48,124 nucleotides of DNA from Candidatus Woesearchaeota archaeon. Its GTDB lineage: Archaea > Nanobdellota > Nanobdellia > Woesearchaeales > UBA583. The stretch lies in contig JBFKKL010000001.1 in assembly GCA_041631255.1 (NCBI GenBank), forward strand, positions 1-48,124, written 5' to 3'. The translations under genes were made by a program, and so were the position numbers. Below, piece after piece: positions 1-41,722 of this stretch; position 1 is the stretch's first letter, and every line of letters begins with the position of its first letter. The notes under the pieces were generated by a model. That model did no database searches and was not told where the DNA came from. It saw only the letters and a list, made by a program, of their open reading frames with translations.

Positions 1-141
1 AAGGTTGCACATCACTTCTAAAATGTCCTCTAACTCAATACAAATTCGATGCACAAGGTCATAAGACAATATTCATTGATTATTCATTACCAATCACTCA
101 AGCCTTAGGTAGATACACAGAACATTTCAATTTAGTTTCAG
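1..141. repeat. Terminal direct repeat, copy 1 (identical to 47984-48124)
   Basis: Compared base by base, all 141 nt are identical. The repeat lies inside an ORF that continues in frame across the junction. Confidence 0.95.
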
Positions 142-3964: not shown

Positions 3965-4651
3965 TTAGTTAAATATTCCATCAAGAATCCATCCAATGAA
4001 TTTACCAAACCACCCAACTTTAGGTTTCTCAGAAGGAGTACTAGAACCTCCTCCTCCTGCACCAACATTATTTTGTTGAGAGTTATCGTCATCAGACAGG
4101 TCAACAATTTCATTAGAAGGATTTTGGACAGGTTCTTCTTCTCCAACCTCAACATTATAGTTAGGAGTATCTAAAGAGACTTTATTAGTTGGAACTTTAG
4201 GCTCAACTTGTGGCTCAGGCTCTTCGTAATAAAAATGAATTGCATTAGTTACTGTCTCATAAGTATGGTTATCAATTGTGATTACAACAGGCACACCATA
4301 ATGTTTTGACATCACACCAAATTTCTTATCATTTGTGTAAACTTCAAAATAAGGTACTTGTCCTTGAATATTTAAATTCTGAAAAGAACACTCTCCTCTA
4401 AGTTCTCTAGTTTGAGTTTTACCTAAATATTCGAACATAACTTCTTTAGATTCACAATCAACAGAGAAATTCTGAGCAGTATTTGGCACATTAAAATTCT
4501 CAATTTTAAATTCTCCACCTTTCACATTTTCATTAGTCTTAAAGAAAATAAAAGATGCTCCTCCACCTCCATAACTAAATACGGACGCCATTGAACCAAC
4601 AATCACAAAAAGAGCGATTACAAGTTTGGATAATTTATTTACAATTTCCAT
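3965..4651 (-). CDS. Secreted or membrane-anchored protein with Gly tracts
   Basis: N-terminal signal anchor LVIALFVIVGSMASVF. GGGG runs. First gene behind a strong leaderless promoter. Confidence 0.65.
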   Translation of the reverse strand: MEIVNKLSKLVIALFVIVGSMASVFSYGGGGASFIFFKTNENVKGGEFKIENFNVPNTAQNFSVDCESKEVMFEYLGKTQTRELRGECSFQNLNIQGQVPYFEVYTNDKKFGVMSKHYGVPVVITIDNHTYETVTNAIHFYYEEPEPQVEPKVPTNKVSLDTPNYNVEVGEEEPVQNPSNEIVDLSDDDNSQQNNVGAGGGGSSTPSEKPKVGWFGKFIGWILDGIFN

Positions 4652-4692
4652 AGTTTTATAGGGTTTGTTTTATTTATAAAAGTGCGTGTTTT
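4652..4692 (-). promoter_or_regulatory. Promoter cassette AAAACACGCAC-TTTTATAAATAAAACAAACCCTATAAAAC
   Basis: Nearly identical to 27954-27988 and 30012-30046. There are 19 nt between the TATA and the ATG at 4651. Confidence 0.7.
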
Positions 4693-6484: not shown

Positions 6485-6501
6485 TTTTTATTTTTACCAA
6501 A

Positions 6502-6575
6502 TAACGAGTAAAGGATTTGAACCTTTGACTTTCGGAGCATGAATCCGAATCTCTACCTAACTGAGTTAACTCGTT
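6502..6575 (-). tRNA. tRNA with anticodon CAU (Met, or Ile2 if C34 is modified); no encoded CCA
   Basis: Cloverleaf folded by hand. Acceptor AACGAGT/ACTCGTT, D arm ACTC-AGTTAGGTA-GAGA, anticodon stem TCGGA/TCCGA with loop TTCATGC, variable loop AAGTC, T arm AAAGG-TTCAAAT-CCTTT, discriminator A. Confidence 0.85.
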
Positions 6576-6590
6576 ACAAAAAAAGTGGAA

Positions 6591-10790: not shown

Positions 10791-10830
10791 ATTTATTTTA
10801 CATAATTTTATTATTTAAAAAAGAGAGTTT

Positions 10831-11799: not shown

Positions 11800-11808
11800 T
11801 TTCTTTTT

Positions 11809-12267
11809 TTAAGCCTCCAATTTATTTAAACAACTTCCGAACTTGAGAACATCCCAAACAGGAATTTTCATATCAAAAGCATATTCAAGTCTATCAAATA
11901 GACCCATCGTCTTATAATTTTTTAGTAAATGTTCAACATTTTCTCTGTTAATGTTAATTGACGTATCCACATCAACACCCGAAGGTTCTTGAGTTTCTTC
12001 AATTGAGACAAGTTTATTGTCCGAAAACTTTAATACTGCATGTACTGTGTTTTCTCCTTCAGTATAACTTACTAGGATAGATTCATATTTAGATGCAATA
12101 CAAGAAGTTACAGCATAATTATTCGCTGAAACCACTATCCAATCATAGTCATAACCTAAAGAGGTTGATGAGTCATGCTTAGTGAAATCAATCACACTAA
12201 CAGCACTTACACCTGACACAAACACCATTGTTAAGATTAGCATTAAAGTTTTTCGAACAGTATCCAT
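11809..12267 (-). CDS. Secreted hypothetical protein
   Basis: N-terminal signal-like LMLILTMVFVSGVSA. Confidence 0.6.
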   Translation of the reverse strand: MDTVRKTLMLILTMVFVSGVSAVSVIDFTKHDSSTSLGYDYDWIVVSANNYAVTSCIASKYESILVSYTEGENTVHAVLKFSDNKLVSIEETQEPSGVDVDTSININRENVEHLLKNYKTMGLFDRLEYAFDMKIPVWDVLKFGSCLNKLEA

Positions 12268-12268
12268 T

Positions 12269-12580
12269 TTATTTAAACCCCAACCAAACCAATATATTTA
12301 AATGGTTTATAACAACAATTGCTGACACAATTGACACAATCACAATTGAAATTCCAATATTTCTGTACAATTCAGATTTATTTTTACTTGATTTAATAAA
12401 ATAGTACTGTGGAAAAAACGCCAACAATTCAATAACAAGTATAGACATAAATGTTTGAAGTGTGGTTGCTATTTGGTTATAGAACACATTAAATTGTAGT
12501 GCAATAACTGCAAAAACAAAATTATAGAGTACTATAACAAATGCCAATAATCCTTTTTGTTCATTAGTTTTTATTTTCAT
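12269..12580 (-). CDS. Small multi-TM membrane protein
   Basis: 103 aa, three hydrophobic segments, tightly packed in the operon. Confidence 0.6.
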   Translation of the reverse strand: MKIKTNEQKGLLAFVIVLYNFVFAVIALQFNVFYNQIATTLQTFMSILVIELLAFFPQYYFIKSSKNKSELYRNIGISIVIVSIVSAIVVINHLNILVWLGFK

Positions 12581-12861
12581 TTTCTTTTTTTACCTCCTTT
12601 AGTAGAGTTCTTTTCATCTGTCATAACGAAGATGAACAATGCTACAAGCACTCCAACTACAAACATTATTTTTGTATCAGAGACAATATAGTCAATCAAT
12701 TTAGGTAAGAAAATTATAATTGCTAGAGCAGAAGTTATAATCCACATTAGATTAGATATTTTATTTGGAAAATTGCTAATTATAATACTCTTAAAAGATA
12801 CCCATAACGATAATCCTAAAAAGATTACAAGTGCAACCCAAAGAAAAATATCTTGAATCAT
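12577..12861 (-). CDS. Small multi-TM membrane protein with a basic tail
   Basis: 94 aa, ends GGKKRK, ATGA-type overlaps on both sides. Confidence 0.6.
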   Translation of the reverse strand: MIQDIFLWVALVIFLGLSLWVSFKSIIISNFPNKISNLMWIITSALAIIIFLPKLIDYIVSDTKIMFVVGVLVALFIFVMTDEKNSTKGGKKRK

Positions 12862-14021
12862 TTTTTAGTCATCCTCCTTGCAAAGTATATCATACCTAAT
12901 CCAATAACTAATATCACAAGCCAAGAGTAATCTAAATCTTCATTTTCAGGAGCAGGTTGAACAGCACTACATTGACCTGTTGTTGTATCCCATAAAGGTT
13001 TATCACTAGGACAGGATTTCTGCACTTCAATACATTGATTAGTAACTTCAAGTTCTCCACTACTACAAGAGTATTTACATAATTGAGTTGAGTCGCCTTG
13101 AACAGGAGCATAATTTGTTATTGCACCACCAAATTCATCACAACTTTGTTTCTCAAGTTGAATTATCTTTGCATCATCACTACAACCTGTAGTTCTAGGA
13201 ATACACTCAATATTTGAACTAAACCTTTCACCTGCCGATGTATCAACAAATTTGAACCCATCTTCTGCCTCAGAAACTAAATAATAGTATTGAGGTCTAG
13301 TAATATAAATTGGTTTACCTCTTTCAACATCTTCTAAAGTAACAAGTTGATTTGAATAAGCCTGAGATAATCCTGATACAACATTCATTGGTACATTAGG
13401 TAAAATTTCAGTCCTACTTCCTGCATCAAGTGTATGGTATTTAACTTGGTTAATTGAATTAATCTCACAAGATAAAGTAGTTGGATTAACAAAACCATCT
13501 TGACTTCTAACTCTTAAACCATAAGCAGGATATTTAGCATAAAGGTCAGCATCACCAAACACTTTATCTGAATCAATGTAAATTGAATCTCCTGCATTCA
13601 CTCTAAAAACAGAACTTTCAGAACTTCCTGAAAAGAATCCTCTTTCTTTAGTACACATTGAAGAATCCAAATCGTCTTTAGTTGCATCAGTACCATCACA
13701 AATATAAGCAGTCAAAGTACCATAATTAGCAACACGATATTCACATTGTGCTCCTGAAACTAAAGGAACATAAGTTCCTGATTCACTTGAAGTACATTGA
13801 TAAAATCTTGGGTTATCAGTATGACTAGTGATTTGTTTTTCAGATAAATGTTCTGAACGAGTCACACATTCAGCAGTCCAATATTGAGGAATCCAAACAC
13901 TCTCTCCAAGCAATGAAAAAGATTGCCCACTAAAGAGACTAAAACCTTGTAACCCTCCAATTATTACCATAAACAATCCAACTAAACCTAATAAAGATAA
14001 AATTAATTTATTTTTTTTCAT
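12858..14021 (-). CDS. Cys-rich surface protein, C-terminal TM anchor
   Basis: Signal anchor, many Cys residues, C-terminal WLVILVIGLGMIYFARRMTKK. Confidence 0.65.
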   Translation of the reverse strand: MKKNKLILSLLGLVGLFMVIIGGLQGFSLFSGQSFSLLGESVWIPQYWTAECVTRSEHLSEKQITSHTDNPRFYQCTSSESGTYVPLVSGAQCEYRVANYGTLTAYICDGTDATKDDLDSSMCTKERGFFSGSSESSVFRVNAGDSIYIDSDKVFGDADLYAKYPAYGLRVRSQDGFVNPTTLSCEINSINQVKYHTLDAGSRTEILPNVPMNVVSGLSQAYSNQLVTLEDVERGKPIYITRPQYYYLVSEAEDGFKFVDTSAGERFSSNIECIPRTTGCSDDAKIIQLEKQSCDEFGGAITNYAPVQGDSTQLCKYSCSSGELEVTNQCIEVQKSCPSDKPLWDTTTGQCSAVQPAPENEDLDYSWLVILVIGLGMIYFARRMTKK

Positions 14022-15175
14022 TTTCTTCTACCCCCAATATAGATTACCATAATAACTAACATGAAAAACACTACAAGTACTTGTGGAGTATTATCTTCAA
14101 AGTAATCTGAGATACCTTGATTAGATAAAAGATTCTTGAAACTAAAATCACAATTAAAAGTTCCAACTTGTTCTTCATATGCCCTACAGAAACTTTCTTT
14201 AACAGGAGTTGTATCATCAAGTTCTTCATCAGCAACTAATGAAGTTATAGTACTTTCATCATCCCTATCTGAAACAATTTGGTCTTGAGGAGTTACTTGA
14301 TATTCACATCTACTTCTTGAATAATCCCAAGCACCTCCATTTTCCTCACAAAGTTCAGAGTTCTCTTGTCCATACTTACAAGACAAACTATCTGAGTTCC
14401 ATTGCCCTCCATTATCTTCACAAATTCTTCTTTCATCATCAAACACTTGTTCATCCGATTGAGAAGAACTTGAGGAACTTACATCTCGAGTTTCTTGAGT
14501 TAGTTCTCCTTGTTTTGCCTCTAAACAATATCTTTCTGTACCATAATCAACTCCATTCCCACCACTTTCTTCAAAATTTAAACATTCGCCATTGTATAGA
14601 TATTTTCTCTCAAATGTATCAGGAAAGATTTGAAGAGGTTCATAACAAGTATATGAATAATAAAAATCTAAACTATTAATAGGATAATTATCACTACCAA
14701 AATCTTGCCAATTTAAGTAATTTCCTTTATAGTGTACTTGCCATAATTGGTCGAATATATCAGCAATACAACTTCCTTTTTTGGAATTAGAGGAACAGAA
14801 TTTGAACCTAATCACTTCCCCCGTTTTACATTGTCCTCCTGCCTCTACATCTGAAAAAGGCACATGATGATAAACTTTAGGATTATCATATGTTTCGAAA
14901 TAGAAATTAGTTTGCACATTATCTACATCAACAAAATTCAATCCAAACAATCCTCGAGGATTAAGAATTTGTTTTCCTGTAAAAACAAACAATTCCGTAT
15001 TTGACACATAATCTTTATCAATTAGATAAGGTAAAGATTCTTCAGTAGCCACTTGAGAGCCTTTAGTAAAGAACATAAAGACTCCAACAACTAATGCAAT
15101 AATAAAGAGTCCTAATACAGTCCTCTCAATTTTTTTCCTTTTTATTTTTTGTAATGTTTTTCTTTTGACTGCCAT
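14018..15175 (-). CDS. Cys-rich surface protein with an internal C-E-x-NGG-x-W repeat, C-terminal TM anchor
   Basis: ICEDNGGQWNSDSLSCKY and LCEENGGAWDYSRSRCEY. Ser-rich linker. C-terminal VLVVFFMLVIMVIYIGGRRK. Confidence 0.65.
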   Translation of the reverse strand: MAVKRKTLQKIKRKKIERTVLGLFIIALVVGVFMFFTKGSQVATEESLPYLIDKDYVSNTELFVFTGKQILNPRGLFGLNFVDVDNVQTNFYFETYDNPKVYHHVPFSDVEAGGQCKTGEVIRFKFCSSNSKKGSCIADIFDQLWQVHYKGNYLNWQDFGSDNYPINSLDFYYSYTCYEPLQIFPDTFERKYLYNGECLNFEESGGNGVDYGTERYCLEAKQGELTQETRDVSSSSSSQSDEQVFDDERRICEDNGGQWNSDSLSCKYGQENSELCEENGGAWDYSRSRCEYQVTPQDQIVSDRDDESTITSLVADEELDDTTPVKESFCRAYEEQVGTFNCDFSFKNLLSNQGISDYFEDNTPQVLVVFFMLVIMVIYIGGRRK

Positions 15176-20605: not shown

Positions 20606-23600
20606 ATGAAAAAAGTACTAATACTAACAATATTAACTCTCTTCTTACCAAGTTTAGTTTTTAGTGCGTTCAATGGAGACGATGATGGATTCCACAGTAA
20701 TGCAGTTGTAACTGAAGGTTCAACAGTTTGCGATTTCGATTTCGAAGATTACAATAACGCAGGAGACGATGCAAATTACGGTTCATTCGATGACCCTGAC
20801 GATACGGGCACAGTTAGAACTCCTTTACAATTTTGGGTATCAAGGACATCAACAATTACTGTAACCTCAACATGTGAATATACAATTTATGAAACGGAGA
20901 CTTGTTCAGGAGCAACAATTCACACAGGTTCAAATACAGGAGGAACAGGAACTTACACAGTTAATATCGCACCAAGCAATTTTGCAGGACATCAAGGTGA
21001 ATTATGTTTATGCGTTAAAGCAATCAATGACCCAGCACTTGGAGACCCAACGGAGAACGAAGAATGCGGTCAAATCGGAATTGCACCTTACATAACTTCA
21101 TTAAATGTAACTGAAAGTACAGTAAATTTATTCCAAAATCAAACTTTAAATTATTCAATTGATGACACGAACGATATTGAAAGACTAGATTGGAAGATAC
21201 TTAGAGTATCAGATAACTCAACAATTAAATCAACATTAAGAGACACAAATCTTTCAGGATTAGTTCAAGAACAACAAATTAATTTTTCAACTAATCCGAT
21301 TTTAGATACAACCCATAAATATTCTGCATTAGGTTGGAGAGATGATAGTGAGAACCATACAAGATTTTCAACAAACTCAGTTAATTTATCAAACGAGTAC
21401 AATATTACAGGCACACTATTTTGTGAAGATTTCACAGACAATTTAGGATTAGGAATTTACAATAAAGGTGAACAGTTGAATTTATCGGGAACAATTGACG
21501 ATTGGAATCAAACAGACTATACAGTAACAACGGGCGTTGGTTACCAAATACAGTACAGAGTAGCAAGTCAAGAAACGAACGAGTTCACATCAACTACAAC
21601 AGACGTAAATTCAACAGGAGGTTGGAACAGAGTTACAACCATTTCAGATTCAGCAGAAGCCACAAACACTTTCACAGGAACTTCTTATGATATAACATTT
21701 CAAATTGACGCAGACGTAGATTCAACAGAGAACATGACTTGTACTTATTCAGGAGTAACTGACATCTCTTCCTTAATTCAATTATCTACAACTCCAAGCG
21801 TACCCACTGCCGATAACAAATATTCAACTAATTATTCAATCTATAATTACGGTGAGACAGCAAATATTTGGGGATACTTATTCAACGTAAGAAATGAGAC
21901 ATATTCTAATCAAGCGAATATGACACTTTTAGTTTTAAATTCCACAAACGCAACTGAAGAGACAGTAAACATTTCAACTAACGGTTCAGGTTATTTCGAG
22001 ACCTCTTATAACATAGTTTCTCCTGACACGTCAACGAACGATAAAACAGGTAGTCCAAAACATATCCAAATAACACCTAATAACGGGAACTCAGAAATCA
22101 ATTCATCAAGTAATCATAGCGTATCATCTTTAATAGAATTGGATTCAAACACTTGTTCAGCATCCAACAACAATTTATTCAATACAACATACAATATTTA
22201 CAATTATGGAGAGACAGTAAACTTTTGGGGATATTTATGTAATGTAAGGGGCGAACCGTACAGTTCAGAATCTAGTTTGAACGTATTAGTTTTAAATTCC
22301 ACAAACGCAACAGAAGAGAACATAACTTTTTCAACTGACTCAAACGGTTTCTTCAATGAAACTTACAACACAACATCACCTGATACAGCAACAAATGATT
22401 TCATAGGAAGTCCAAAACATTTAAGGATAACTCCTAACGATGACAATTCACAATTCGATTCAGCAAACGGGCATTCACTATCAACTTTAATCCAATTATC
22501 TACGAACACCTGTTCAGCATCCAACAATAATTTATATTCAACTAATTATTCAATTTACAATTACGGTGAGACAGTAAACATTGAAGGATATTTATGTAAT
22601 GTAAGAAATGAAAGTTACGCAAGTCAATCAGGTATGACATTAAAAGTATTAAGTAACACAAACACAACAGAAGAGACAAAAACGATTTCAACTAACGGTT
22701 CAGGTTATTTTGAAACAACATATACTCCCGCATCGCCCGATTTAGCAACAACAGATTATGTTGGTAGTCCAAAACATATCCAAGTAACTCCTAATGATAA
22801 TAATGGAATTTTAAATTCATCAAGTAATCACAGCATATCAACTTTAATTAGTATCTCAGATAAAGCATGTAATGTAGAAATCAATAATAAATTCAATACA
22901 ACATACAATATTTACAATTACGGAGAGACAGTAAACTTTTGGGGATATTTATGTAATGTAAGAAATGAAAGTTACGCAAGTCAATCCTCTTTAACATTCA
23001 AAGTTCATGCAGACAATGAGAGTGTAGAAGAAACAATCTCAACAGCAAGTACTGACTCAAACGGTTTCTTCAATGAATCTTATGTACCTGATTCAACAGA
23101 TAAAGCAACAAATGATTTCATAGGAAGTCCAAAACATTTAGAGATTACATCCAATGACGATAACAGTATATTCGAAAGTGATTCTTCATTTAATTTAAGT
23201 TCATTACTTAACGCAACAATATGGATTTCCAAATCATCAAGCACCCAAACAATTCCAACAGATGAGATTGCAACACAATTCATTATTGCAGGAGATTCAG
23301 TTTATGCGTGGGTAAAAACTTTAGGAGTTAGAGGAGACAACATTTCATCAGTTACAGTCGATACAAAAACAGTTAGAGGTGCAACAACAGAAGAAACTAA
23401 TAATGGCTTAATAACTAAAGCGAACGCATGGACAAATAGAACTTCGTTCAATCCTGTTGTTCCTGCGGGTCAAAGAGATTTAGTTGCAAACGGAACTGAC
23501 AGTTCAAGTAATTTCTTTTCAGTAAATGAGACAATAGAATATATCCCTGCTTATACAGCAAATAGAATAAGTGTACCATTCATAAGAAAGATTTCAGGTG

Positions 23601-26311
23601 ACGGGATAGGCAACAACTTTGTTTCAGGTTCAGTTCTAAGAATCTACGTTGACTATTTTGTTGATGCACAATTACAAGACACTTTAAACAACCAATCAAC
23701 AGTTACGATTCGTAACTCAACTAATGACATCATGTTAAATGCAACCAACATGACAAGACATTCTTTAGGTAAATATTATTACGATTGGGATACAACGGGC
23801 AAGAACCCTGACTCATACCATTTCTTACTTTTCGGTAAGAACTTAGATACAGTAGATTCTTATTCAAGTGCTTTTGTAATTATAACAAACGAAACTGCAA
23901 TCACATCTTTACCTGTAACCAATAATAATGTTTCAACATCTTCTCCATATGTAAGAAAGATTTCAGGCGATGGTATTGGTAACAATTTCAAGAACGGCTC
24001 AATATTAAGAATTTATTCAGATTTCGCAGTGAATGGAACATTAACAAACACTTCTGAAACTCCTACTATAACATTAAAGAACTCAACAGATAATATAGTT
24101 TTAAATTCTCTTAACATGACATATTTATCAACAGGTAAATATTATTACGATTGGAACACAACAGGAATAAATCAAGACACTTATCACGCCATAACTCAAG
24201 GTAATGTAGGTAACAAGAACACTTACGGAAATGTTTGGTTTGTTGTAACTAATGAAACTCCAACAACTGAATCAATAAACAACAATATAACAACAATAAA
24301 TCCTTACATTAAGAAACTTTCAGGCGATGGCATAGGTAATAACTTCAAGAACGGTTCAGTTCTAAGAATTTACGGAGATTATTTAGTTAATGAGACTTTG
24401 ACTGAACCTTTGAGTAATCTCTCTAAATTGACGATTAGAGATTCAACAAACAATATAATCTTAAATGAAGTTAACATGACAAGAGATAATCAAGGAATTT
24501 ATTATTATGATTGGAATACTCAGAACGAGACTCAAGATACATATTACTTATTAATTGATGGAACAGTTGGGGGTAAAAGAACATTTGGAAGTTCTTGGTT
24601 TATTATAACAAACGAGACAGCAGTAACATCAATCCCTCAAGAAGATGAAAGAACAATCACACCTTACGTTAAAAAACAATCAGGACAAGGTATTGGAAAT
24701 AATTTCGTTAACGGTTCAAGTTTAAGATTATATTCAGATTTCCTATTAAACGGTCAATTAACAAACACATCTGATACACCAACAGTTACAATTCGTAACT
24801 CAACTAACGATATAATCCTGAATGCAACTAATATGACTTTCCATTCAACAGGTAAATATTATTACGATTGGGATACAACAAATGTGAGCCCTGATTCCTA
24901 TTTAGTTATTTATGAAGGAGATTTAAATTCCAATACAACTTATTCGAGTGCATGGTTCATTATAACAAACGAGACAGCAGTAACATCAATCCCTACAACA
25001 AACACTACAACAGTTTCACCTTACATTAAGAAAATATCAGGTGCAGGTATTGACAATAATTTCAAGAACGGTTCAGTTCTAAGACTTTACACAGACTATT
25101 TTGTTAACGGAGCATTAACTGACCCGACAAACAATCAATCAACAGTTACAATTCGTAACTCAACAAACAGCATCATAGTTAACAGTGCTAATATGACAAG
25201 ACATTCAACAGGTAAATATTATTACGATTGGAACACGTCAGGGATTGACCCTGACTCATATTTAGCAATTTATCAAAGTACACTTAGCGGTAACTTAACT
25301 TACGGAAGCACTTGGTTCGTACTAACAAATGAGTCATTAGATAGTTTTTCTGAGAGAATCGCATTAGCAACAGAGATTGGTGCAGGTGCAAAAGTAAAAA
25401 ACAATTTAAACAATTCAGAATATTTCAATAACGAGAACGTAATCACTAAAAGAATAAGTGAAACAGCGTTAATGAAATTCAATATCACTTTCTTAAAAGT
25501 TCCTGATAATGGCGATGATTATAAAGTTAGATATGAGTTTTACGCTAGAAACGGTTCAGGAGAGATTGTTGAATCGATTGAAACAACAGTTCAAGGAACG
25601 ACAGGTAACAAGGACATATATTTTGGGAGCAACAATTTATCTCCTAACGGATTACAGGAAACTTATTTAGTTAAAACAATAGTTAGTATGCAAAACGAGA
25701 ATGGATTATATTTAGAATTTAATGAAACAATTATTGGTTCAATCACAGTTGATAGTTCAAATAGTGTAACGGAAGGAGACACAGTAGGTAGGGCAGGACT
25801 CTACGATGTAATAGTTGAAGTTGATAGACATAAATACGAACCTTCAGACATAGTTAAGGCAGAAATAGTCATCTTCAATACAGGAGACATACCTGATGAG
25901 GACACAGTCTTAATTTATTGGTTAGAAAAGAATGGTGAAAGATATGGAGAAGTGAAAGAACAGTTCTTAGAAATTCCTGTAGGTAAAACTTTCCTTAATA
26001 AAGCAATCGCCTTACCTTCCGATTCAGAACTTGGTGAATGGCGTTTCGTTGCAGAATATTATACAGTTGTTCAACCTAAAATCAAGGTTTACGATTCATT
26101 TGAAGTTGTAGAAGATGTCGCTTTACTTGACGATTTCCAAGAAGAATTAAAGAATTTAGTTTTAATACCTGCAACATTTATTACTGATTCAATTCCCGAA
26201 TTTGTTAAATCACAAAGATTAGTTAGTAGAGATTTTGTTTATGTATGCATTGGAATCTTATTTAGTATCTGCTTATTCATATTCTTCGTGAAAAGGAGGA
26301 AGAGAAAGTAA
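20606..26311 (+). CDS. Giant tandem-repeat surface adhesin-like glycoprotein (1901 aa), C-terminal TM plus KRRKRK
   Basis: Signal peptide. Four A-type and five B-type repeats of about 119 aa. Extremely sequon-rich. C-terminal FVYVCIGILFSICLFIFFVKRRKRK. Confidence 0.8.
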   Translation: MKKVLILTILTLFLPSLVFSAFNGDDDGFHSNAVVTEGSTVCDFDFEDYNNAGDDANYGSFDDPDDTGTVRTPLQFWVSRTSTITVTSTCEYTIYETETCSGATIHTGSNTGGTGTYTVNIAPSNFAGHQGELCLCVKAINDPALGDPTENEECGQIGIAPYITSLNVTESTVNLFQNQTLNYSIDDTNDIERLDWKILRVSDNSTIKSTLRDTNLSGLVQEQQINFSTNPILDTTHKYSALGWRDDSENHTRFSTNSVNLSNEYNITGTLFCEDFTDNLGLGIYNKGEQLNLSGTIDDWNQTDYTVTTGVGYQIQYRVASQETNEFTSTTTDVNSTGGWNRVTTISDSAEATNTFTGTSYDITFQIDADVDSTENMTCTYSGVTDISSLIQLSTTPSVPTADNKYSTNYSIYNYGETANIWGYLFNVRNETYSNQANMTLLVLNSTNATEETVNISTNGSGYFETSYNIVSPDTSTNDKTGSPKHIQITPNNGNSEINSSSNHSVSSLIELDSNTCSASNNNLFNTTYNIYNYGETVNFWGYLCNVRGEPYSSESSLNVLVLNSTNATEENITFSTDSNGFFNETYNTTSPDTATNDFIGSPKHLRITPNDDNSQFDSANGHSLSTLIQLSTNTCSASNNNLYSTNYSIYNYGETVNIEGYLCNVRNESYASQSGMTLKVLSNTNTTEETKTISTNGSGYFETTYTPASPDLATTDYVGSPKHIQVTPNDNNGILNSSSNHSISTLISISDKACNVEINNKFNTTYNIYNYGETVNFWGYLCNVRNESYASQSSLTFKVHADNESVEETISTASTDSNGFFNESYVPDSTDKATNDFIGSPKHLEITSNDDNSIFESDSSFNLSSLLNATIWISKSSSTQTIPTDEIATQFIIAGDSVYAWVKTLGVRGDNISSVTVDTKTVRGATTEETNNGLITKANAWTNRTSFNPVVPAGQRDLVANGTDSSSNFFSVNETIEYIPAYTANRISVPFIRKISGDGIGNNFVSGSVLRIYVDYFVDAQLQDTLNNQSTVTIRNSTNDIMLNATNMTRHSLGKYYYDWDTTGKNPDSYHFLLFGKNLDTVDSYSSAFVIITNETAITSLPVTNNNVSTSSPYVRKISGDGIGNNFKNGSILRIYSDFAVNGTLTNTSETPTITLKNSTDNIVLNSLNMTYLSTGKYYYDWNTTGINQDTYHAITQGNVGNKNTYGNVWFVVTNETPTTESINNNITTINPYIKKLSGDGIGNNFKNGSVLRIYGDYLVNETLTEPLSNLSKLTIRDSTNNIILNEVNMTRDNQGIYYYDWNTQNETQDTYYLLIDGTVGGKRTFGSSWFIITNETAVTSIPQEDERTITPYVKKQSGQGIGNNFVNGSSLRLYSDFLLNGQLTNTSDTPTVTIRNSTNDIILNATNMTFHSTGKYYYDWDTTNVSPDSYLVIYEGDLNSNTTYSSAWFIITNETAVTSIPTTNTTTVSPYIKKISGAGIDNNFKNGSVLRLYTDYFVNGALTDPTNNQSTVTIRNSTNSIIVNSANMTRHSTGKYYYDWNTSGIDPDSYLAIYQSTLSGNLTYGSTWFVLTNESLDSFSERIALATEIGAGAKVKNNLNNSEYFNNENVITKRISETALMKFNITFLKVPDNGDDYKVRYEFYARNGSGEIVESIETTVQGTTGNKDIYFGSNNLSPNGLQETYLVKTIVSMQNENGLYLEFNETIIGSITVDSSNSVTEGDTVGRAGLYDVIVEVDRHKYEPSDIVKAEIVIFNTGDIPDEDTVLIYWLEKNGERYGEVKEQFLEIPVGKTFLNKAIALPSDSELGEWRFVAEYYTVVQPKIKVYDSFEVVEDVALLDDFQEELKNLVLIPATFITDSIPEFVKSQRLVSRDFVYVCIGILFSICLFIFFVKRRKRK
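21770..23210 (+). repeat. Intragenic repeat family A (4 x about 357 nt, ABAB pattern with a 714-nt higher-order period)
   Basis: IYNYGETVN.WGYLCNVR...GSPKH recurs. Copies 1/3 and 2/4 share long near-identical nucleotide runs at an offset of 714 nt. Confidence 0.85.
23565..25345 (+). repeat. Intragenic repeat family B (5 x about 357 nt)
   Basis: PY(I/V)KK.SG.GIGNNF.NGS.LR.Y...GKYYYDW.T...ITNETAVTSIP recurs. AACGAGACAGCAGTAACATCAATCCCT occurs at 24611 and 24968. Confidence 0.85.
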
Positions 26312-26312
26312 A

Positions 26313-26603
26313 ATGAACAACAAAGCAGAAATAAGCCCTGTAGTAGCAACAGCATTACTTCTTGTAGTTGCAGTAACTCTAGTAGTTGGATTTCAAGCAT
26401 GGTACAACACATTAAAATATGGAGAAGGACAACCAAGAATAGGAGACTTAATATTGAATACAACAATAGAGGGTGACATCTACAAATGTTTTTATCATGA
26501 TAAAGGGAGTATGAGATGTGAAATAAAGGAATGTTTCAAAATAGAGAATACAACATTTTGTGAGCAAAGTTATGAGAACAAATATTTCACTTTCCCAAAA
26601 TGA
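26313..26603 (+). CDS. Archaeal type IV pilin-like protein (class III signal peptide, DUF1628-like N-terminus)
   Basis: MNNKAEISPVVATALLLVVAVTLVVGF matches the archaeal pilin/archaellin N-terminal pattern. Cys-rich C-terminus. Confidence 0.6.
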   Translation: MNNKAEISPVVATALLLVVAVTLVVGFQAWYNTLKYGEGQPRIGDLILNTTIEGDIYKCFYHDKGSMRCEIKECFKIENTTFCEQSYENKYFTFPK

Positions 26604-26770: not shown

Positions 26771-26785
26771 ATAAACCCTAAAAAC

Positions 26786-26815
26786 ATACTTTTATAAATA
26801 AACAAACCCTAATTC
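26786..26815 (+). promoter_or_regulatory. Promoter TACTTTTATAAATAAACAAACCCTAA
   Basis: TATA at 26791-26800, 22 nt before the ATG at 26823. Carries the ACAAACCCTA element. Confidence 0.6.
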
Positions 26816-26822
26816 TTTCTAA

Positions 26823-27023
26823 ATGAAACAAGGTTACAAAGAATGGACTAAAGAAGAAGAAGAAATTATCAAAAAGAATTTCAATAAGATAAAACGTTCA
26901 CAAGGTTCAAAGTATGAAGTTTTAAAGAAACTATTTGAAGAGAAAGGATTTGAAAGAACAAGTAAAGCAATTTACAGGAAATGTCAAAAGATGGGTTTAA
27001 AGAGTTTTGACAGGAGATGCTAA
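26823..27023 (+). CDS. Small Myb/SANT-like putative DNA-binding protein
   Basis: WTKEEEEIIKKNF....RTSKAIYRKCQKMGL resembles a single Myb/SANT repeat. Confidence 0.35.
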   Translation: MKQGYKEWTKEEEEIIKKNFNKIKRSQGSKYEVLKKLFEEKGFERTSKAIYRKCQKMGLKSFDRRC

Positions 27024-27953: not shown

Positions 27954-27988
27954 TACACACTTTTATAAATAAAACAAACCCTATAAAC
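27954..27988 (+). promoter_or_regulatory. Promoter cassette ACACACTTTTATAAATAAAACAAACCCTATAAAC
   Basis: The first 29 nt are identical to 30012-30040. The ATG at 28002 follows. Confidence 0.7.
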
Positions 27989-28001: not shown

Positions 28002-28328
28002 ATGATAGAAATATATGAAATAAGTTGTGATATGAGTTCAATGAAGATATTCTTTGGTACAGGAAGTTGTTTTTTTAGCAATAATCTTGGGGATGGAACA
28101 TACAAAGTAGAGATAGTGTTACGTAAATTAGTATGGTCTGAACCGAGCGATTGTGAATTTATTGGACATTTCACAGTATTGGAAAAGGCATATTTAATGA
28201 AATATGATTGTAGTATAGATGATGAAGATAAACTTTATACTTTTGAAAAAGGAAGATATTTTGTTTACTTTTCACAACAAGAACAAAGATATTATATAGT
28301 TTTAGAAGATGATTCAACCAATGCGTAG
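28002..28328 (+). CDS. Hypothetical protein (108 aa)
   Basis: First ORF after the promoter cassette. Confidence 0.55.
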   Translation: MIEIYEISCDMSSMKIFFGTGSCFFSNNLGDGTYKVEIVLRKLVWSEPSDCEFIGHFTVLEKAYLMKYDCSIDDEDKLYTFEKGRYFVYFSQQEQRYYIVLEDDSTNA

Positions 28329-28599
28329 AGAAATGGAAGGAAGAAAGGTATTAGGTTTCATAATTGTCTTTTTGTTCTGTATATTTTCATCATACAATAT
28401 TGCAGAATGGAATTACGAGAGAAAAATCAATAGCATCGAGACAAATTTCGATGAACAAATCGAGGATATAAGAACACTTATTGAGTACGATGCACCAAAA
28501 GAGCAGGTCTTAGAACAACTAGATTCTTTAGAACAGCAGATTAAATTTCAGCAATCGTTCTTTTTAGAGGAGGCAGAATACAATGTCGTTTATGAATAA
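28309..28599 (+). CDS. Small membrane-anchored protein
   Basis: TM VLGFIIVFLFCIFSSY. The start could instead be the ATG at 28321. Confidence 0.5.
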   Translation: MIQPMRREMEGRKVLGFIIVFLFCIFSSYNIAEWNYERKINSIETNFDEQIEDIRTLIEYDAPKEQVLEQLDSLEQQIKFQQSFFLEEAEYNVVYE

Positions 28600-29758
28600 T
28601 TTAATGATAAATTACATATTCGGGTTTTCAGTATTCGCATCATTATTATGGTTCTATTATTATTTCGGACTATATTTCTTATCAACACCCACACCAACTA
28701 AGAAGTATAAAGGCAGAAAAGCGTTAATAGTTCCTGTTTATAACGAGAACTCCAAAGAACTAACTGACACAATCAATTCAGTTAAAAGAGTTAGACATGA
28801 GTTTGATGCAATACTTTTCGTCAATGACGGTTCAACAAACGATGTGGCAGAGGTTCTAAAGAAGAATCTTGAAGAGAAAGAATATTATAATATGTTCAGG
28901 AACAGAGGTAAAAGGGAAGCACAAGCGAAAGGAATACAATTATTAACAGACTGTTATGGTAAAGATTATTTCGATTCATTCGTTATGATGGACTCAGACA
29001 CAGTTTTAACAAGAACTTCTGTAAGAAATTTATGTAGAAAAATGGTATTTGAAGATGTTGGGGGCGTTACAGCACAGATTCTAGTTAAGAACAAAACAAC
29101 TAATTTCTTAACAAGATGTATGAGTGCAATGTATTGGAGTTCAAGTAACATTTGGCGTCAAGCACCTGCCAATTACGGTTACCAACAAGTAATGAACGGA
29201 CAATTAACAGTTTACAGGGCAAAACCCATTATAGAACTTTTACCTAAATATATAACACAAACATTTAGGGGCGTTAAATGTACTTATTCAGATGATAGAT
29301 GGCTCACACATCATTTACAAACAGATTTCGGATTAAGAATGGAATACGAGCGAGAGGCAATTGCATACACTTATGTTCCTGAAACATTCAAAGGTGCATG
29401 GAAAATGCTCATGCGTTGGAAGAAGGGAAGTTTAAGGGAGACTCTTTTAGTTACTAAACATTTTTTCAGGAAACCTCTTTTAGTTTTAGATTGTTGGTGG
29501 AATCATTTAGTTTCAATAGGTCAATTAATAATTAGAATAATTGTTGTAGTGATAGCGTTCTCGTTCCCGTTAGTATTATTATATTATTTTATGATAATTG
29601 CAATGATAAGTGTCGTTTATGGTTTCGACATGTTAATTAGAAATCCAAAAGAGATTCCATATAGAGTTGGTTGGAGTTTCCTGAACGAGTTCTATTTTGG
29701 GTTCATCATAGTTGGAGCGATATTTGGATTGCAGAGACAATCTTGGGAAACAAGATGA
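28583..29758 (+). CDS. Processive family-2 glycosyltransferase (hyaluronan/chitin/NodC-synthase-like)
   Basis: LIVPVYNE, FVNDGSTND, MMDSDT, SDDRWLTHHL (compare GDDRHLT in class I hyaluronan synthases), MRWKKGSLRE (Q/RxxRW-type). N- and C-terminal TM helices. Confidence 0.8.
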   Translation: MSFMNNLMINYIFGFSVFASLLWFYYYFGLYFLSTPTPTKKYKGRKALIVPVYNENSKELTDTINSVKRVRHEFDAILFVNDGSTNDVAEVLKKNLEEKEYYNMFRNRGKREAQAKGIQLLTDCYGKDYFDSFVMMDSDTVLTRTSVRNLCRKMVFEDVGGVTAQILVKNKTTNFLTRCMSAMYWSSSNIWRQAPANYGYQQVMNGQLTVYRAKPIIELLPKYITQTFRGVKCTYSDDRWLTHHLQTDFGLRMEYEREAIAYTYVPETFKGAWKMLMRWKKGSLRETLLVTKHFFRKPLLVLDCWWNHLVSIGQLIIRIIVVVIAFSFPLVLLYYFMIIAMISVVYGFDMLIRNPKEIPYRVGWSFLNEFYFGFIIVGAIFGLQRQSWETR

Positions 29759-30009
29759 AATTAATTAGATTCAAATCATTACCTGAATATTGGAATAAAG
29801 AACGAATAGGTCTAAAAAAGAATACATTAAGAAAAGTAGACATGGGGGAAAACAAATTCAAAATGCTCGAAGAATGGGAAAAAATAATGAAAGACGGTCA
29901 TTTTATATTTTTCATTGAAATAACAAACACTGAAACAAAAGAATCTTTCAGGAAAAGAATTACCGATATAACTTTCTATAAAGGTTGGGTTATAATAAGT
30001 TGGATATAA
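29755..30009 (+). CDS. Hypothetical protein (84 aa)
   Basis: ATGA-coupled to the GT2 gene. The 5' extension in the track is an artefact. Confidence 0.5.
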   Translation: MKLIRFKSLPEYWNKERIGLKKNTLRKVDMGENKFKMLEEWEKIMKDGHFIFFIEITNTETKESFRKRITDITFYKGWVIISWI

Positions 30010-30011
30010 AC

Positions 30012-30046
30012 ACACACTTTTATAAATAAAACAAACCCTAAAATAC
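30012..30046 (+). promoter_or_regulatory. Promoter cassette ACACACTTTTATAAATAAAACAAACCCTAAAATAC
   Basis: Near-exact copy of 27954-27988 and of 4652-4686 on the minus strand. Confidence 0.7.
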
Positions 30047-31751: not shown

Positions 31752-31951
31752 AACCAACAGAAAGAGAATTTGAGAGATTAGAAGATTTACTTGATAGAAG
31801 TAGGATAGTAAAAACTCAATCTTCAATTGATGAACTTAACAATTACAAATCTTATTTAATGTTAAAGTATGAGATGAGCACCGAACAAGATTTACTTCTG
31901 AATTGGTGGGAAAGACAATTAGAGATATTACAATACGAAAATAAAAGATGA
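31748..31951 (+). CDS. Small hypothetical protein
   Basis: ATGA overlaps on both sides. Confidence 0.55.
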   Translation: MKPTEREFERLEDLLDRSRIVKTQSSIDELNNYKSYLMLKYEMSTEQDLLLNWWERQLEILQYENKR

Positions 31952-33333
31952 AAAAAGATAAAGTTATTGCTCAGATATATTCAACAAGTGACATTTATAA
32001 TCTTAAAGTGAAGATTCTTTCAGACAAAGTAAACAATTTCGATTTTCTAAGAATCAAACATAAGAAGTATGGATATGTTTTAGCACAGATAATGAACATA
32101 CAAAGAAACACTCAAAACGAGATGATTGGGTTTTGTAAAATAATCGGTTACAGAAAAGATTCTAAACTTCTTTCAATTAGACAACCTTTTGAAACTAACG
32201 CAGAAATTGAACTAGCAAATGACGAGTTCATCGAACACACATTAGGTTTTAACAGAGTGGAAGGTGCAATGATAGGACATTTATCGTTCAAAGATAAACT
32301 AAAAATCAACTTACCTCTAAAAGATTTGTTAACAAAACATATTTCTATTCTTGCTAAATCGGGGTCAGGTAAATCTTATACAGTGGGCGTTCTTTTAGAA
32401 GAGATAATCAAACATAACATACCAATAGTTGTTTTAGACTTACACAATGAATATCATTCATTACGATTCAAGAACCAAGATAAACAACAATTAGAATCAT
32501 TAAAGAAATTCAATTTATCTGCAAAAGGTTTCAATAATGAAGTTAAGATTTGGAGTCCAAGACCTGAACAAGATTACGAGAATCAATTACTTTTAAGTAT
32601 AGAGAACTTGAACAGCGACAGATTATTCGATTCATTGATTAATCCATTAAGTCATTCATCTAAATCTCTAATACATAATGTTTTGTCGGGCATGAACAAT
32701 CAAATTAACATAGATGAATTGATATTCCATCTCTCAAATGAAGAGACAAACACTAAATGGACAATCATCTCAGCGTTAGAGGAATTAAAGAAAACTAGAA
32801 TCTTTTCCAATAAAGGAACTCCATTAAATGAGATTGTAAAACATAGACAGGCATCGATAATTAATTTGAAAGGAATACCTCACTCAATTACAGAAACATT
32901 CGTTATGAACCTTCTAACAGATTTATTTCAAGCAAGAAAGAAAGAAGAGATACCTCCATTTTTACTTGTTGTAGAAGAAAGTCACAATTTTTGCTCTGAA
33001 CTAAATTTAGGTAAAAAGAAAACAAATGACATTATCACAACTATTGCAAGTGAAGGGAGAAAGTTCGGTTTAGGTTTATGTGTTATCTCTCAAAGAGCAA
33101 GTAAGGTCAATAAGAACGTCTTGAGTCAATGCAATACACAAATTATTATGAATATAGTAAATGAACGTGACATTAAGGCAGTAATAAATTCCTCTGAAGG
33201 ATTAGACACAGACACAGGAAATGAAATACAAAGATTGGAAGTAGGTTCATGTATTCTAGCAGGATTAATGTCAACACCATTAAAGATTAAAGTTAGACCT
33301 AGACAATCTAGGCATGGAGGAGACGTACAATGA
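31948..33333 (+). CDS. HerA-like (FtsK/HerA superfamily, DUF87-type) ATPase
   Basis: Walker A LAKSGSGKSYTVG, followed by IPIVVLDLHNEYH. Walker B FLLVVEESHNF. ISQRAS sensor-like motif. N-terminal barrel-like region. Confidence 0.75.
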   Translation: MKKDKVIAQIYSTSDIYNLKVKILSDKVNNFDFLRIKHKKYGYVLAQIMNIQRNTQNEMIGFCKIIGYRKDSKLLSIRQPFETNAEIELANDEFIEHTLGFNRVEGAMIGHLSFKDKLKINLPLKDLLTKHISILAKSGSGKSYTVGVLLEEIIKHNIPIVVLDLHNEYHSLRFKNQDKQQLESLKKFNLSAKGFNNEVKIWSPRPEQDYENQLLLSIENLNSDRLFDSLINPLSHSSKSLIHNVLSGMNNQINIDELIFHLSNEETNTKWTIISALEELKKTRIFSNKGTPLNEIVKHRQASIINLKGIPHSITETFVMNLLTDLFQARKKEEIPPFLLVVEESHNFCSELNLGKKKTNDIITTIASEGRKFGLGLCVISQRASKVNKNVLSQCNTQIIMNIVNERDIKAVINSSEGLDTDTGNEIQRLEVGSCILAGLMSTPLKIKVRPRQSRHGGDVQ

Positions 33334-36847: not shown

Positions 36848-36996
36848 TCTAACCTCACAATCATTTCATTTGTCCAAGTTATTGCTAAAAGAACAAAGGA
36901 CAGTGGATTACCATAGATAAGTGCATGAAAAACAGAAGTAATTAAAATCACTTTATTCAAACTAATAACCCAATCAGGAATATTTATTTTTCTCAT
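36841..36996 (-). CDS. Small TM protein (51 aa)
   Basis: ATGA-coupled to the HNH gene, below the track cut-off. Replaces the antisense track ORF 36711..36920. Confidence 0.45.
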   Translation of the reverse strand: MRKINIPDWVISLNKVILITSVFHALIYGNPLSFVLLAITWTNEMIVRLEW

Positions 36997-37391
36997 TCTT
37001 CATCCACCATCCCTATATCTTCTTTTCTCTTTTGATTCCACTCTGCAACATCGATTTTTGTCTTCTCGGAGTGGTGTTGACGACACAATGTTTGAAGATT
37101 ATCAAGTTCATCACTACCACCTAAACTAACAGGCTCTATATGGTCTATTTCTAATGAATCTGTTGAACCACATTTCACACATTTATAATTATCTCTTTTC
37201 AAAACTTTACTCCTAATAGCGTTCCAATCAAAAACTTTGCATAGGTGTTTATAGAAATAATCATTACATTTAGGAGAACAAGTTCTAAGATTAGTTCTAA
37301 CAGGATTCTTCATACATGATGGACAAATCCCTTCAGCAATTTTTTTCTCAACCCAATTGGGCATATCTAATCTGAATGTTTCTCTTGCCAT
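36993..37391 (-). CDS. HNH endonuclease with an N-terminal Cys cluster
   Basis: CVKCGSTDSLEIDHIEPVSLGGSDELDNLQTLCRQHHSEKT. Confidence 0.85.
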   Translation of the reverse strand: MARETFRLDMPNWVEKKIAEGICPSCMKNPVRTNLRTCSPKCNDYFYKHLCKVFDWNAIRSKVLKRDNYKCVKCGSTDSLEIDHIEPVSLGGSDELDNLQTLCRQHHSEKTKIDVAEWNQKRKEDIGMVDEE

Positions 37392-41278: not shown

Positions 41279-41722
41279 ATGGATAACCTATCAAAAAATC
41301 AAGAAACAGTATTGACTTTACGGAAACAAGGATTGACTCAAAAAGAAATAGGTGATGAATTAGGAGTTTCAAAACAAGCCATTTCAAAAACAATGAAAAT
41401 TTTGAGAAGAAAAGCCGTAATACCAAGAAAAGAACTGCACAACTCTTTTAATATTCCTTTGAGAGGCATAAAATTTTTTCACGATGGATATGTAAAGTTT
41501 AATTCGGAGGGAAATGAAATATTTTTACATAGACATATTTGGGAAATAAACAATGGCACCATTCCTGAAGGTTATGTAATTCACCATATCAATTTAAATC
41601 GAAGTGATAACAGATTAAACAATTTAATGTGTTTAACTCATAAACAACATAGAGAGTTACATAAAAAAATTGATAATGGAATTCAAGAAATAACAAAAAA
41701 ATTCATGAAAGAAATACAATAA
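41279..41722 (+). CDS. HTH (sigma-70 region 4/LuxR-like) plus HNH endonuclease fusion
   Basis: LTQKEIGDELGVSKQAISKTMKIL, then HRHIWEINNGTIPEGYVIHHINLNRSDNRLNNLMCLTHKQHRELH. Confidence 0.8.
   Translation: MDNLSKNQETVLTLRKQGLTQKEIGDELGVSKQAISKTMKILRRKAVIPRKELHNSFNIPLRGIKFFHDGYVKFNSEGNEIFLHRHIWEINNGTIPEGYVIHHINLNRSDNRLNNLMCLTHKQHRELHKKIDNGIQEITKKFMKEIQ

Follow-up and report, generated by a model that had tools for sequence, protein, structure and literature searches.

A minimal glycosyltransferase of the NodC/hyaluronan synthase/chitin synthase clade, encoded in a conserved three-gene cassette on a mobile element of a Woesearchaeota archaeon

Introduction

Hyaluronan synthases (HAS), chitin synthases (CHS), NodC, and BcsA belong to the membrane-embedded processive glycosyltransferases of family 2 (GT2). 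For HAS a set of signature residues has been described, comprising KR, DXD, GDD, [S/T]G, LT, QXXRW, and WG[T/S]R, and a gating loop at the extreme C-terminus is a trait of the bacterial enzymes (bioRxiv 10.64898/2026.02.21.705424). Such a loop over the active site is known in both HAS and cellulose synthase; exchanging G for A in the WGTR of Chlorella virus HAS (CvHAS) abolishes activity, and in Xenopus HAS1 (XlHAS1) the two arginines of the R-Y-x3-F-x3-R motif on interface helix 1 (R287/R296) hold glucuronic acid (GlcA) (PMC11750622). In NodC, replacing any residue of QxxRW by Ala inactivates the enzyme; residues D241, W281, and Y214/R215 of SmNodC were examined by mutagenesis, the "ruler" residues L19 and R349 cap the product pocket and restrict the product to pentamers, and the additional transmembrane (TM) helices required for a channel are lacking (PMC4132801). 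Here we describe a synthase of this class encoded by a 48,124-nucleotide (nt) stretch of DNA from a Candidatus Woesearchaeota archaeon (contig JBFKKL010000001.1 of assembly GCA_041631255.1), referred to below as the window. The gene, in our judgement, probably encodes a minimal membrane-integrated inverting beta-glycosyltransferase of the NodC/class I HAS/chitin synthase clade, working as part of a three-gene cassette and yielding a product based on N-acetylglucosamine (GlcNAc).

Fold and motifs of the synthase

An earlier note on this DNA had proposed a hyaluronan/chitin-synthase-like GT2 carried by a mobile element. The reading frame itself, 28583..29758 on the forward strand, was borne out: it starts with ATG and encodes 391 amino acids (aa). 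All motifs listed in that note are present, namely DGS (residues 82-84), DSD (137-139), SDDRWLT (236-242), and MRWKKGS (277-283), and to these we add GKR (109-111), NGQL..YR (205-212), and a C-terminal WETR (388-391). The motif series is nevertheless not "full", the Q of QxxRW being M and the G of WGTR being E. Of the supposed Q/RxxRW-type motif, R278-W279 stands and the Q does not: it reads M275-L-M-R278-W279. As had also been claimed, the catalytic domain is flanked by membrane segments, with hydrophobic stretches at residues 7-30, 305-354, and 365-383 (19-residue hydropathy window). The AlphaFold model, built on an alignment of homologues (predicted local distance difference test (pLDDT) 94.7; predicted TM-score (pTM) 0.92), has helices at residues 2-32, 298-325, 330-346, and 355-381, a GT-A domain at 46-263, and an interface helix with MxxRW at 269-293. 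Helices 2-32, 298-325, and 330-346, with the interface helices, account for a topology of three TM helices and a cytoplasmic glycosyltransferase (GT) domain. In 36 homologues the catalytic residues are invariant: D82-G-S, G109-K-R, D137-S-D139, G206, Y211, D238, T242, R278-W279, and W388/T390. R278 and W279 lie on helix 269-293; M275 is itself invariant in the close family in place of the Q, and other superfamily branches show the same exchange. Within the TM helices, too, polar and aromatic residues are invariant (W23, Y27, D303, W305, Q314, R318, and Y335), while the second position of the W-x-T-R gating motif varies across the family. A 61-aa open reading frame (ORF) on the opposite strand of the gene (28966..29151) appears "conserved" in other loci; we dismissed it as a gene, considering it the shadow of the conserved GT2 coding strand.

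The assignment to GT2 lies well beyond chance: the synthase matches Pfam families PF00535 (Glycos_transf_2, 1e-15), PF13641, and PF13632. Its best NCBIfam match is NodC (TIGR04242; 4.9e-39, 134.4 bits against an equivalog cut-off of 550), followed by PgaC/IcaA (TIGR03937; 4e-23, 81.9 bits against a cut-off of 422.3). With the single sequence as query, the PDB yields CvHAS at 2.5e-14 and Xenopus HAS at about 1e-14. A profile of the close family reaches CvHAS at 1.9e-30; the alignment covers profile positions 44-390, begins with the GT domain, and extends to CvHAS residue 458, taking in the W454-G-T-R457 gating loop. In the Foldseek search of the PDB the top 13 matches are class I HAS (E down to 3e-20, query TM-score 0.76-0.81), and over about 420 columns the model superposes on HAS with a TM-score of 0.81. 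BcsA and the chitin synthases of yeast and oomycetes come next, at about 0.6; both structures with which a comparison had been suggested are thus matched, and class I HAS is matched better. Fold and sequence together place the protein where the earlier note had put it, in the processive membrane-embedded class, with class I HAS closest. Its matches in a viral structure library are proteins of giant eukaryotic viruses.

Among 5.8 billion proteins searched, 28 proved to be close homologues, all metagenomic (35-59% identity, 377-403 aa), the next matches being at about 29% identity. Among 1.84 billion cluster representatives, 594 homologues were found at E<=1e-30, about 35 of them of the short type (376-393 aa). 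Many of the others carry an N-terminal extension of 30-70 aa, which in six retrieved relatives holds an extra hydrophobic segment consistent with a second TM helix. The best matches in a plasmid collection are rhizobial NodC (28-32% identity, one NodC being aligned over residues 48-391) and HasA of pXO1 (30%).

Placement within the clade

The plasmid collection also provided reference sequences: NodC of two rhizobia, HasA of Bacillus anthracis pXO1, and PgaC of Escherichia coli. Core identity of the synthase is 32-34% to NodC, 31% to B. anthracis HasA, 28% to CvHAS, 26% to XlHAS1, and 22% to PgaC. In a neighbour-joining tree (197 columns, 200 bootstraps, three HAS references, PgaC as outgroup) the family is monophyletic at 98% bootstrap; a grouping with NodC alone obtains 14% and one with HAS alone 0%. 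On these comparisons the family is a separate lineage of the NodC/HAS/chitin-synthase clade.

Residue by residue, the synthase has the KR, DXD, DD, and LT of the HAS signature, whereas GDD is SDD, [S/T]G is NG, the Q is M, and WGTR is WETR. On interface helix 1 the sequence M183-Y-W-S-S-S-N-I-W-R192 keeps only the second arginine of the HAS motif, and the Phe is S. D241, W281, and Y214/R215 of SmNodC align with D238, W279, and Y211/R212, respectively. Of the NodC ruler, L19 corresponds to A19 and R349 falls within a four-residue insert found in NodC only, the alignment being less certain in this TM region. Since the family tests for HAS and for NodC both failed, "hyaluronan/chitin synthase" in the earlier note describes the class and not a membership. 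Membership of NodC, PgaC, or HAS is ruled out by the curated cut-offs and the signature residues, and the name "hyaluronan synthase", given to several homologues by the JGI annotation pipelines, is unjustified.

The A-B-GT2 cassette

The synthase (protein C) belongs to a conserved cassette, A-B-GT2, that the earlier note had missed. Related loci were sought with an alignment of 27 close members, and 11 loci were examined, the window and 10 others. Protein B (75-95 aa) lies directly upstream of GT2 in all 11 loci with upstream sequence, mostly overlapping its start, and the B proteins of all loci are linked by jackhmmer (E 1e-23 to 1e-32). In B a short basic N-terminus is followed by one TM helix and a helical, acidic tail, about 55 aa long in the window copy. 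Protein A (180-230 aa, secreted) is found directly upstream of B in 10 of the 11 loci, the window being the exception (Table 1). Across the loci the A proteins have a signal peptide followed by A-Y-G-G-x-G-G; in the window copy the signal peptide precedes Y-G-G-G-G, a core with two Cys, an acidic linker, and a hydrophobic Trp-rich C-terminal tail. The A family was gathered from the loci by local jackhmmer, word-indexed searches with the window copy and with that of locus L001 having given only one or two proteins. All but two A proteins were linked in this way, strongly within the subclade of the window and elsewhere at 1e-8 to 1e-11, mostly through the N-terminal region. On the 107-kb contig of L001 (8609-10008) two extra genes stand between B and the synthase, for a 158-aa membrane protein and a 308-aa multi-TM protein (possibly GT-C-like); neither product has a family match, and they may be accessory parts of the cassette.

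The promoter cassette that the earlier note had assigned to the synthase is real, but not the gene's own: it lies 600 bp upstream and heads a tight unit of four genes, ORF108-B-GT2-ORF84, that overlap or nearly abut. Just three copies occur in 48 kb at up to three mismatches, where shuffled sequences lead one to expect none. As the same 27-nt cassette precedes A, this gene is probably co-regulated with B and the synthase. A weaker copy (75%) at 26780-26815 lies upstream of ORF 26823..27023; the copies suggest that related promoters form a family across this block.

Two of the other loci are chromosomal. The archaeal locus L003 has genes for AMP phosphorylase, dUTPase, TYW3, and an Lhr helicase, with a sugar-1-phosphate nucleotidyltransferase gene directly downstream of GT2, and L005, from a Candidatus Nanoarchaeia genome bin, has an archaeal GlmM-like mutase 2.6 kb upstream in addition to GTP cyclohydrolase II, ornithine carbamoyltransferase (OTCase), and ArgJ. 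The cassette is also present in a Woesearchaeota genome bin, and homologues in Nanoarchaeia and Woesearchaeota bins support the archaeal host assumed earlier. The remaining eight contexts appear, from their gene content, to be mobile elements: most show long same-strand runs of small ORFs without Pfam matches, together with matches to MCM, AAA, HNH, TnpB, YopX, or BppU_N, and one is a viral contig of IMG/VR. They share almost nothing with the window beyond the cassette. Jointly with the explanation favoured here, we consider it fairly probable that the cassette is native to chromosomes of Nanoarchaeia/Woesearchaeota (DPANN) and was acquired by several unrelated mobile elements, the window included. 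Large proteins with a CBM96 carbohydrate-binding module are encoded a few kb downstream of the cassette in L001 (15014-17944) and L010 (11668-13671), both of them MCM-encoding contigs.

Proposed mechanism and product

The cytoplasmic GT-A domain would bind a uridine diphosphate (UDP)-sugar through D82, K110/R111, and the metal site D137-x-D139, and D238 of SDDR would act as catalytic base on the acceptor hydroxyl. On the MxxRW helix, W279 and R278 would keep the acceptor sugar and the pyrophosphate in place at the entrance to a path that TM1, TM2, and TM3 line, while the C-terminal W-x-T-R loop would shut over the bound nucleotide. Sugars would be added one at a time at the non-reducing end, pushing the chain into the membrane path. 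With UDP-GlcNAc as the likeliest donor, the product would be a chitin-like, beta-linked GlcNAc oligomer or polymer. B, whose translation is coupled to that of the synthase, is a small membrane protein with a single TM helix and may provide what is the first TM helix in the two-helix relatives; it could stand in for TM helix 1 of the HAS type because it is predicted to have its N-terminus inside, the N-terminus of the synthase being outside. A would be a secreted, probably membrane-tethered protein. On the 48-kb element, the cassette would remodel the surface of the carrier cell.

A GlcNAc-based product appears most likely, and hyaluronan less likely, because the best hidden Markov model (HMM) match is to NodC, the first of the two arginines that hold GlcA in HAS is not kept, no locus has a linked UDP-glucose dehydrogenase gene, and GlmM- and GlmU-like neighbours occur. 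None of the 10 flanking regions examined, nor the window, holds a UDP-glucose dehydrogenase gene; in pXO1, taken as control, galU and UDP-glucose dehydrogenase follow hasA. The chromosomal neighbours at two loci include an archaeal GlmM-like mutase and a GlmU/AglF-like nucleotidyltransferase. An exported product seems to us more likely than a cytoplasmic oligomer, since the ruler of NodC is missing and each of the two partners has a part outside the cytoplasm.

Several points speak against this interpretation. The Q-to-M exchange concerns a motif in which mutation of any residue to Ala kills NodC, even if M recurs in other branches, and WETR has E where the exchange of G for A is fatal to CvHAS, at a position that varies in the family and in NodC reads WLSR. 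Three TM helices may leave a monomer without a closed channel, and NodC with the same topology makes only pentamers. The nucleotide-sugar genes beside the cassette score well under their family cut-offs and so lend weak support, and the phylogeny is a distance tree on 197 columns with weak deep support. No Pfam family was found for A or B, and the predicted model of A is poor (pLDDT 37, from a three-sequence alignment). The functional reading as a whole draws on sequence and predicted structure. With no recognisable family and with the model of A failing, the roles proposed for A and B come from synteny and topology only. Comparison by eye brought out no resemblance between B and the N-terminal helix that the two-helix relatives have in addition, so that the idea of a split helix is an argument from topology.

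The alternative that survives best, though we consider it rather unlikely, is an oligosaccharide synthase like NodC, making short chito-oligosaccharides of 3-6 units that are released into the cytoplasm or used as primer or signal, with no polymer exported. It would explain the full-length collinearity, the same arrangement of one N-terminal and two C-terminal TM helices with an interface helix, the top rank of NodC in NCBIfam and the NodC alignment over nearly the entire protein, and a gating motif without Gly as in the WLSR of NodC, itself stated to be short of channel-forming TM helices (PMC4132801). Yet with 134 bits the synthase stays far under the cut-off of 550, the two pocket-capping residues are not conserved, a NodC-only grouping reaches 14% bootstrap, and neither nodA, nodB, nor other oligosaccharide-tailoring genes are nearby. 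A cytoplasmic product also fits badly with an obligatory secreted protein and a membrane protein with its tail outside.

Less likely again is a true hyaluronan synthase that, as the enzymes of Chlorella virus and streptococci do, would add GlcNAc and GlcA in turn. Class I HAS supplies the best structural and PDB sequence matches, the synthase has DDR rather than EDR as well as GKR, R192 aligns with the second GlcA-contacting arginine, the gating loop is at the extreme C-terminus as in bacterial HasA (bioRxiv 10.64898/2026.02.21.705424), and several homologues bear the pipeline name mentioned above. Against this, the signature is partial (SDD where HAS has GDD, NG instead of [S/T]G, M replacing Q, and E replacing the G of WGTR), the first arginine of interface helix 1 is M and its Phe is S, there is one N-terminal TM helix instead of two, and in the tree a group of the family with only the three HAS references obtains 0% bootstrap. 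None of the 11 loci has a linked UDP-glucose dehydrogenase gene, unlike the has operon of pXO1.

We give little credence to a synthase of poly-beta-1,6-GlcNAc (PNAG) like PgaC/IcaA with B in the role of PgaD/IcaD. PgaC/IcaA is the second-best NCBIfam match, and pgaC followed by pgaD, a gene for a small membrane protein, is a precedent for a small obligatory partner, but 82 bits stand against a cut-off of 422, similarity is clearly below that to NodC and HAS (22% core identity, with PgaC as outgroup), PgaC has no W-x-T-R at its extreme C-terminus, no PgaB/IcaB-like deacetylase was found in the neighbourhoods, and B resembles no Pfam family. Finally, a non-processive polyprenyl-phosphate sugar transferase (AglD/DPM1/GtrB-like) feeding N-glycosylation of sequon-rich surface proteins, a placement that the earlier note had named as decisive against its own reading and for which a PHROG GtrB-like match (2.5e-09, residues 47-181) and the large sequon-rich secreted proteins of the element could be cited, is ruled out for practical purposes by profile coverage and fold rank: undecaprenyl- and dolichol-phosphate (Und-P/Dol-P) sugar transferases align with nothing beyond the N-terminal half of the catalytic domain (close-family profile positions 46-155, E about 1e-8 to 1e-10, against 44-390 at 1e-30 for HAS), the archaeal mannosyltransferase PcManGT stands at Foldseek rank 18 (TM-score 0.62 versus 0.81 for HAS), and the (S/G)DDR, xxxRW, and WxTR motifs with the interface helices are hallmarks of the processive clade.

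The 48-kb element

An exact 141-bp direct terminal repeat indicates that the window represents a complete element of 47,983 bp, either circular or terminally redundant. Its nature as an extrachromosomal mobile element, already supposed in the earlier note, is supported by this repeat together with an integrase, HNH endonucleases, a HerA-type ATPase, and an absence of housekeeping genes. Pfam and PHROG scans of 30 window ORFs recognised no capsid, portal, tail, or other virion gene, and "virus" is therefore unproven. The HerA/DUF87 protein could be a packaging ATPase or one for plasmid transfer or segregation; the tRNA-Met gene may be an attachment site or a tRNA carried by the element; and for the 1901-aa secreted protein a role in adhesion or receptor binding is probable. 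The reverse strand has further large secreted ORFs at 7257-15175, and the N-terminus (MNNKAEISPVVATALLLVVAVTLVVG...) of a 96-aa ORF at 26313-26603 (forward strand), without Pfam match, resembles an archaeal type IV pilin/class III signal peptide. An HNH_3 relative is present in L010. An exact 42-mer of the synthase gene found no match in IMG/VR, and the window contig is thus absent from that collection.

Table 1. Features of the window, with positions counted from its first nucleotide.
Feature	Position	Strand	Remarks
Direct terminal repeat, 141 bp, identical to 47984-48124	1..141	.	exact match
Tyrosine integrase	3249-3938	+	Phage_integrase, 8.5e-42
Protein A, 228-aa secreted protein	3965..4651	-	third member of the cassette, displaced 24 kb from B-GT2
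Promoter cassette, third copy	4659..4685	-	1 mismatch; 7 nt upstream of the A start codon
tRNA-Met (CAT), complete gene	6501-6576	-	2.5 kb from the integrase
1901-aa secreted protein	20606-26311	+	many N-x-S/T sequons, long internal repeats, C-terminal MG2 (alpha-2-macroglobulin-type) domain, TM anchor
Promoter-like cassette ACACTTTTATAAATAAAACAAACCCTA, 27 nt, archaeal TATA-like core	27957..27983	+	repeat family D1; heads the four-gene unit; ends 19 nt before ORF 28002
108-aa ORF, first gene of the unit	28002..28328	+	no known family; not conserved in other loci
Protein B, small single-pass membrane protein	28333..28599 (start possibly 28309)	+	end overlaps the GT2 start by 17 nt
Protein C, GT2 synthase of the NodC/HAS/chitin-synthase clade	28583..29758	+	ATG start, 391 aa
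Single N-terminal TM helix (residues 2-32)	28586..28678	+	invariant W23, Y27; N-terminus outside; followed by basic KKYKGRK on the cytoplasmic side
Nucleotide-sugar binding part of GT-A domain: D82-G-S, G109-K-R, D137-S-D139 (DxD)	28826..28999	+	invariant, 36 homologues
Interface helix 1 motif A-M183-Y-W-S-S-S-N-I-W-R192	29126..29158	+	aligned to HAS R-Y-x3-F-x3-R and NodC E-Y-W-L-A-C-N-E-E-R
S-D-D238-R-W-L-T, catalytic-base motif	29288..29308	+	D238 aligned to SmNodC D241
M-R278-W279-K-K-G-S, interface helix 2	29411..29431	+	QxxRW equivalent, M275 for Q
C-terminal membrane region (residues 298-381), two TM helices and interface helices	29474..29725	+	putative glycan path; invariant D303, W305, Q314, R318, P329, Y335, E369
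W388-E-T-R391 gating-loop motif, extreme C-terminus	29744..29755	+	W, T, and R invariant; profile alignment reaches CvHAS residue 458
84-aa ORF, last gene of the unit	29755..30009	+	ATG overlaps the GT2 stop codon (ATGA); function not assigned, not conserved elsewhere
Promoter cassette, exact second copy	30014..30040	+	start of the next transcription unit
HerA/DUF87 (FtsK-HerA superfamily) ATPase	31948-33333	+	2e-30; PHROG families annotated "terminase large subunit"; unit headed by a promoter-cassette copy
HNH endonuclease	36993-37391	-	
HNH endonuclease fused to a helix-turn-helix (HTH) domain	41279-41722	+	

Significance and comparison with known systems

Generic glycosyltransferases have been reported in DPANN viruses (PMC11310336, PMC12647753). 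Our full-text literature search found no report of an enzyme of the HAS/NodC/chitin-synthase class in DPANN archaea or archaeal mobile elements, and the deposited genomes of phages and archaeal viruses contain no full-length relative of the synthase. GT2 proteins do occur in a few bacterial phages (Caudovirales GX15bay, Streptomyces phage Kromp), yet their similarity is confined to residues 40-288 (about 27% identity) and is PgaC-like, and they belong to another family. To our knowledge, the virus-borne synthases of the chitin/hyaluronan class have so far been those of giant algal viruses. DPANN archaea live attached to other cells, and a mobile cassette by which a sugar chain is probably deposited on their surface would therefore bear on attachment, superinfection exclusion, and gene transfer in symbionts that are uncultured.

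More tentatively, and with less confidence than in the synthase assignment, A-B-GT2 may form an exopolysaccharide machine of DPANN archaea that is self-contained and moves horizontally. B would then be the split-off first TM helix of the HAS type, C would polymerise and export a chitin- or glycosaminoglycan-like chain, and A would receive or anchor this chain outside. By taking up the cassette repeatedly, viruses and plasmids of these episymbionts would give the carrier cell a coat that either blocks superinfection or promotes cell-cell attachment and transfer; if so, this would be the first polymer synthase system of the chitin/hyaluronan class in Archaea and the first on a prokaryotic mobile element. 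The synthase is among the smallest of its class (391 aa, three TM helices, a separate small partner), which makes it a model for the minimal set of helices in polysaccharide translocation and, with B, for whether a split TM helix can gate a channel.

Among the described systems, PgaC-PgaD and IcaA-IcaD provide a functional analogy for B, namely a GT2 synthase dependent on a small co-encoded membrane protein. Similarity to these synthases is only 22%, their partner gene is downstream and not upstream and is unrelated to B in sequence, and no deacetylase or porin genes surround our synthase. The eukaryotic and giant-virus chitin synthases (PDB 7WJM, 7STL, and 8K3Q; chlorovirus CHS) share the processive GT2 superclade, a profile match at 8e-12, and weak precomputed Pfam Chitin_synth_1/2 matches in most members of the family, but their QxFEY, EDR, and QRRRW are not conserved and the TM-score is just about 0.6.

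Class I HAS offers the best match in fold (TM-score about 0.8) and in PDB sequence (CvHAS, 7SP6-7SPA; Xenopus HAS1, 8SMM-8SMP; HasA), with a common GT-A domain carrying GKR, DxD, xDDR-LT, xxxRW on interface helix 2, and the W-x-T-R gating loop. In bacterial HasA, too, this loop is the extreme C-terminus (the B. anthracis protein ends in ...NGWGTR), and CvHAS is likewise carried by a virus. The class I enzymes differ in their length (417-600 aa, against 391), in having two N-terminal TM helices instead of one, and in forming a separate clade at an overall identity of just 17-22%; TM helices 5 and 6 of the viral and vertebrate enzymes are absent from the synthase, which has the conserved partners A and B and no linked UDP-glucose dehydrogenase.

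NodC is collinear over its full length and of the same size class, with the same out-in TM1, cytoplasmic GT domain, TM2/TM3, and interface helix, and it shares the N-V-G-K-R-x-A-Q and Y-W motifs and a gating motif lacking Gly. The synthase differs from it by DDR in place of EDR and M in place of Q, by ending at W-x-x-R without a C-terminal tail, by the lack of a nodAB context, and by its archaeal and mobile-element hosts. Compared with all of these, the synthase family stands apart as an archaeal lineage of a well-known enzyme class; it combines a minimal architecture with two uncharacterised obligatory partners, and mobile elements appear to have captured it repeatedly.

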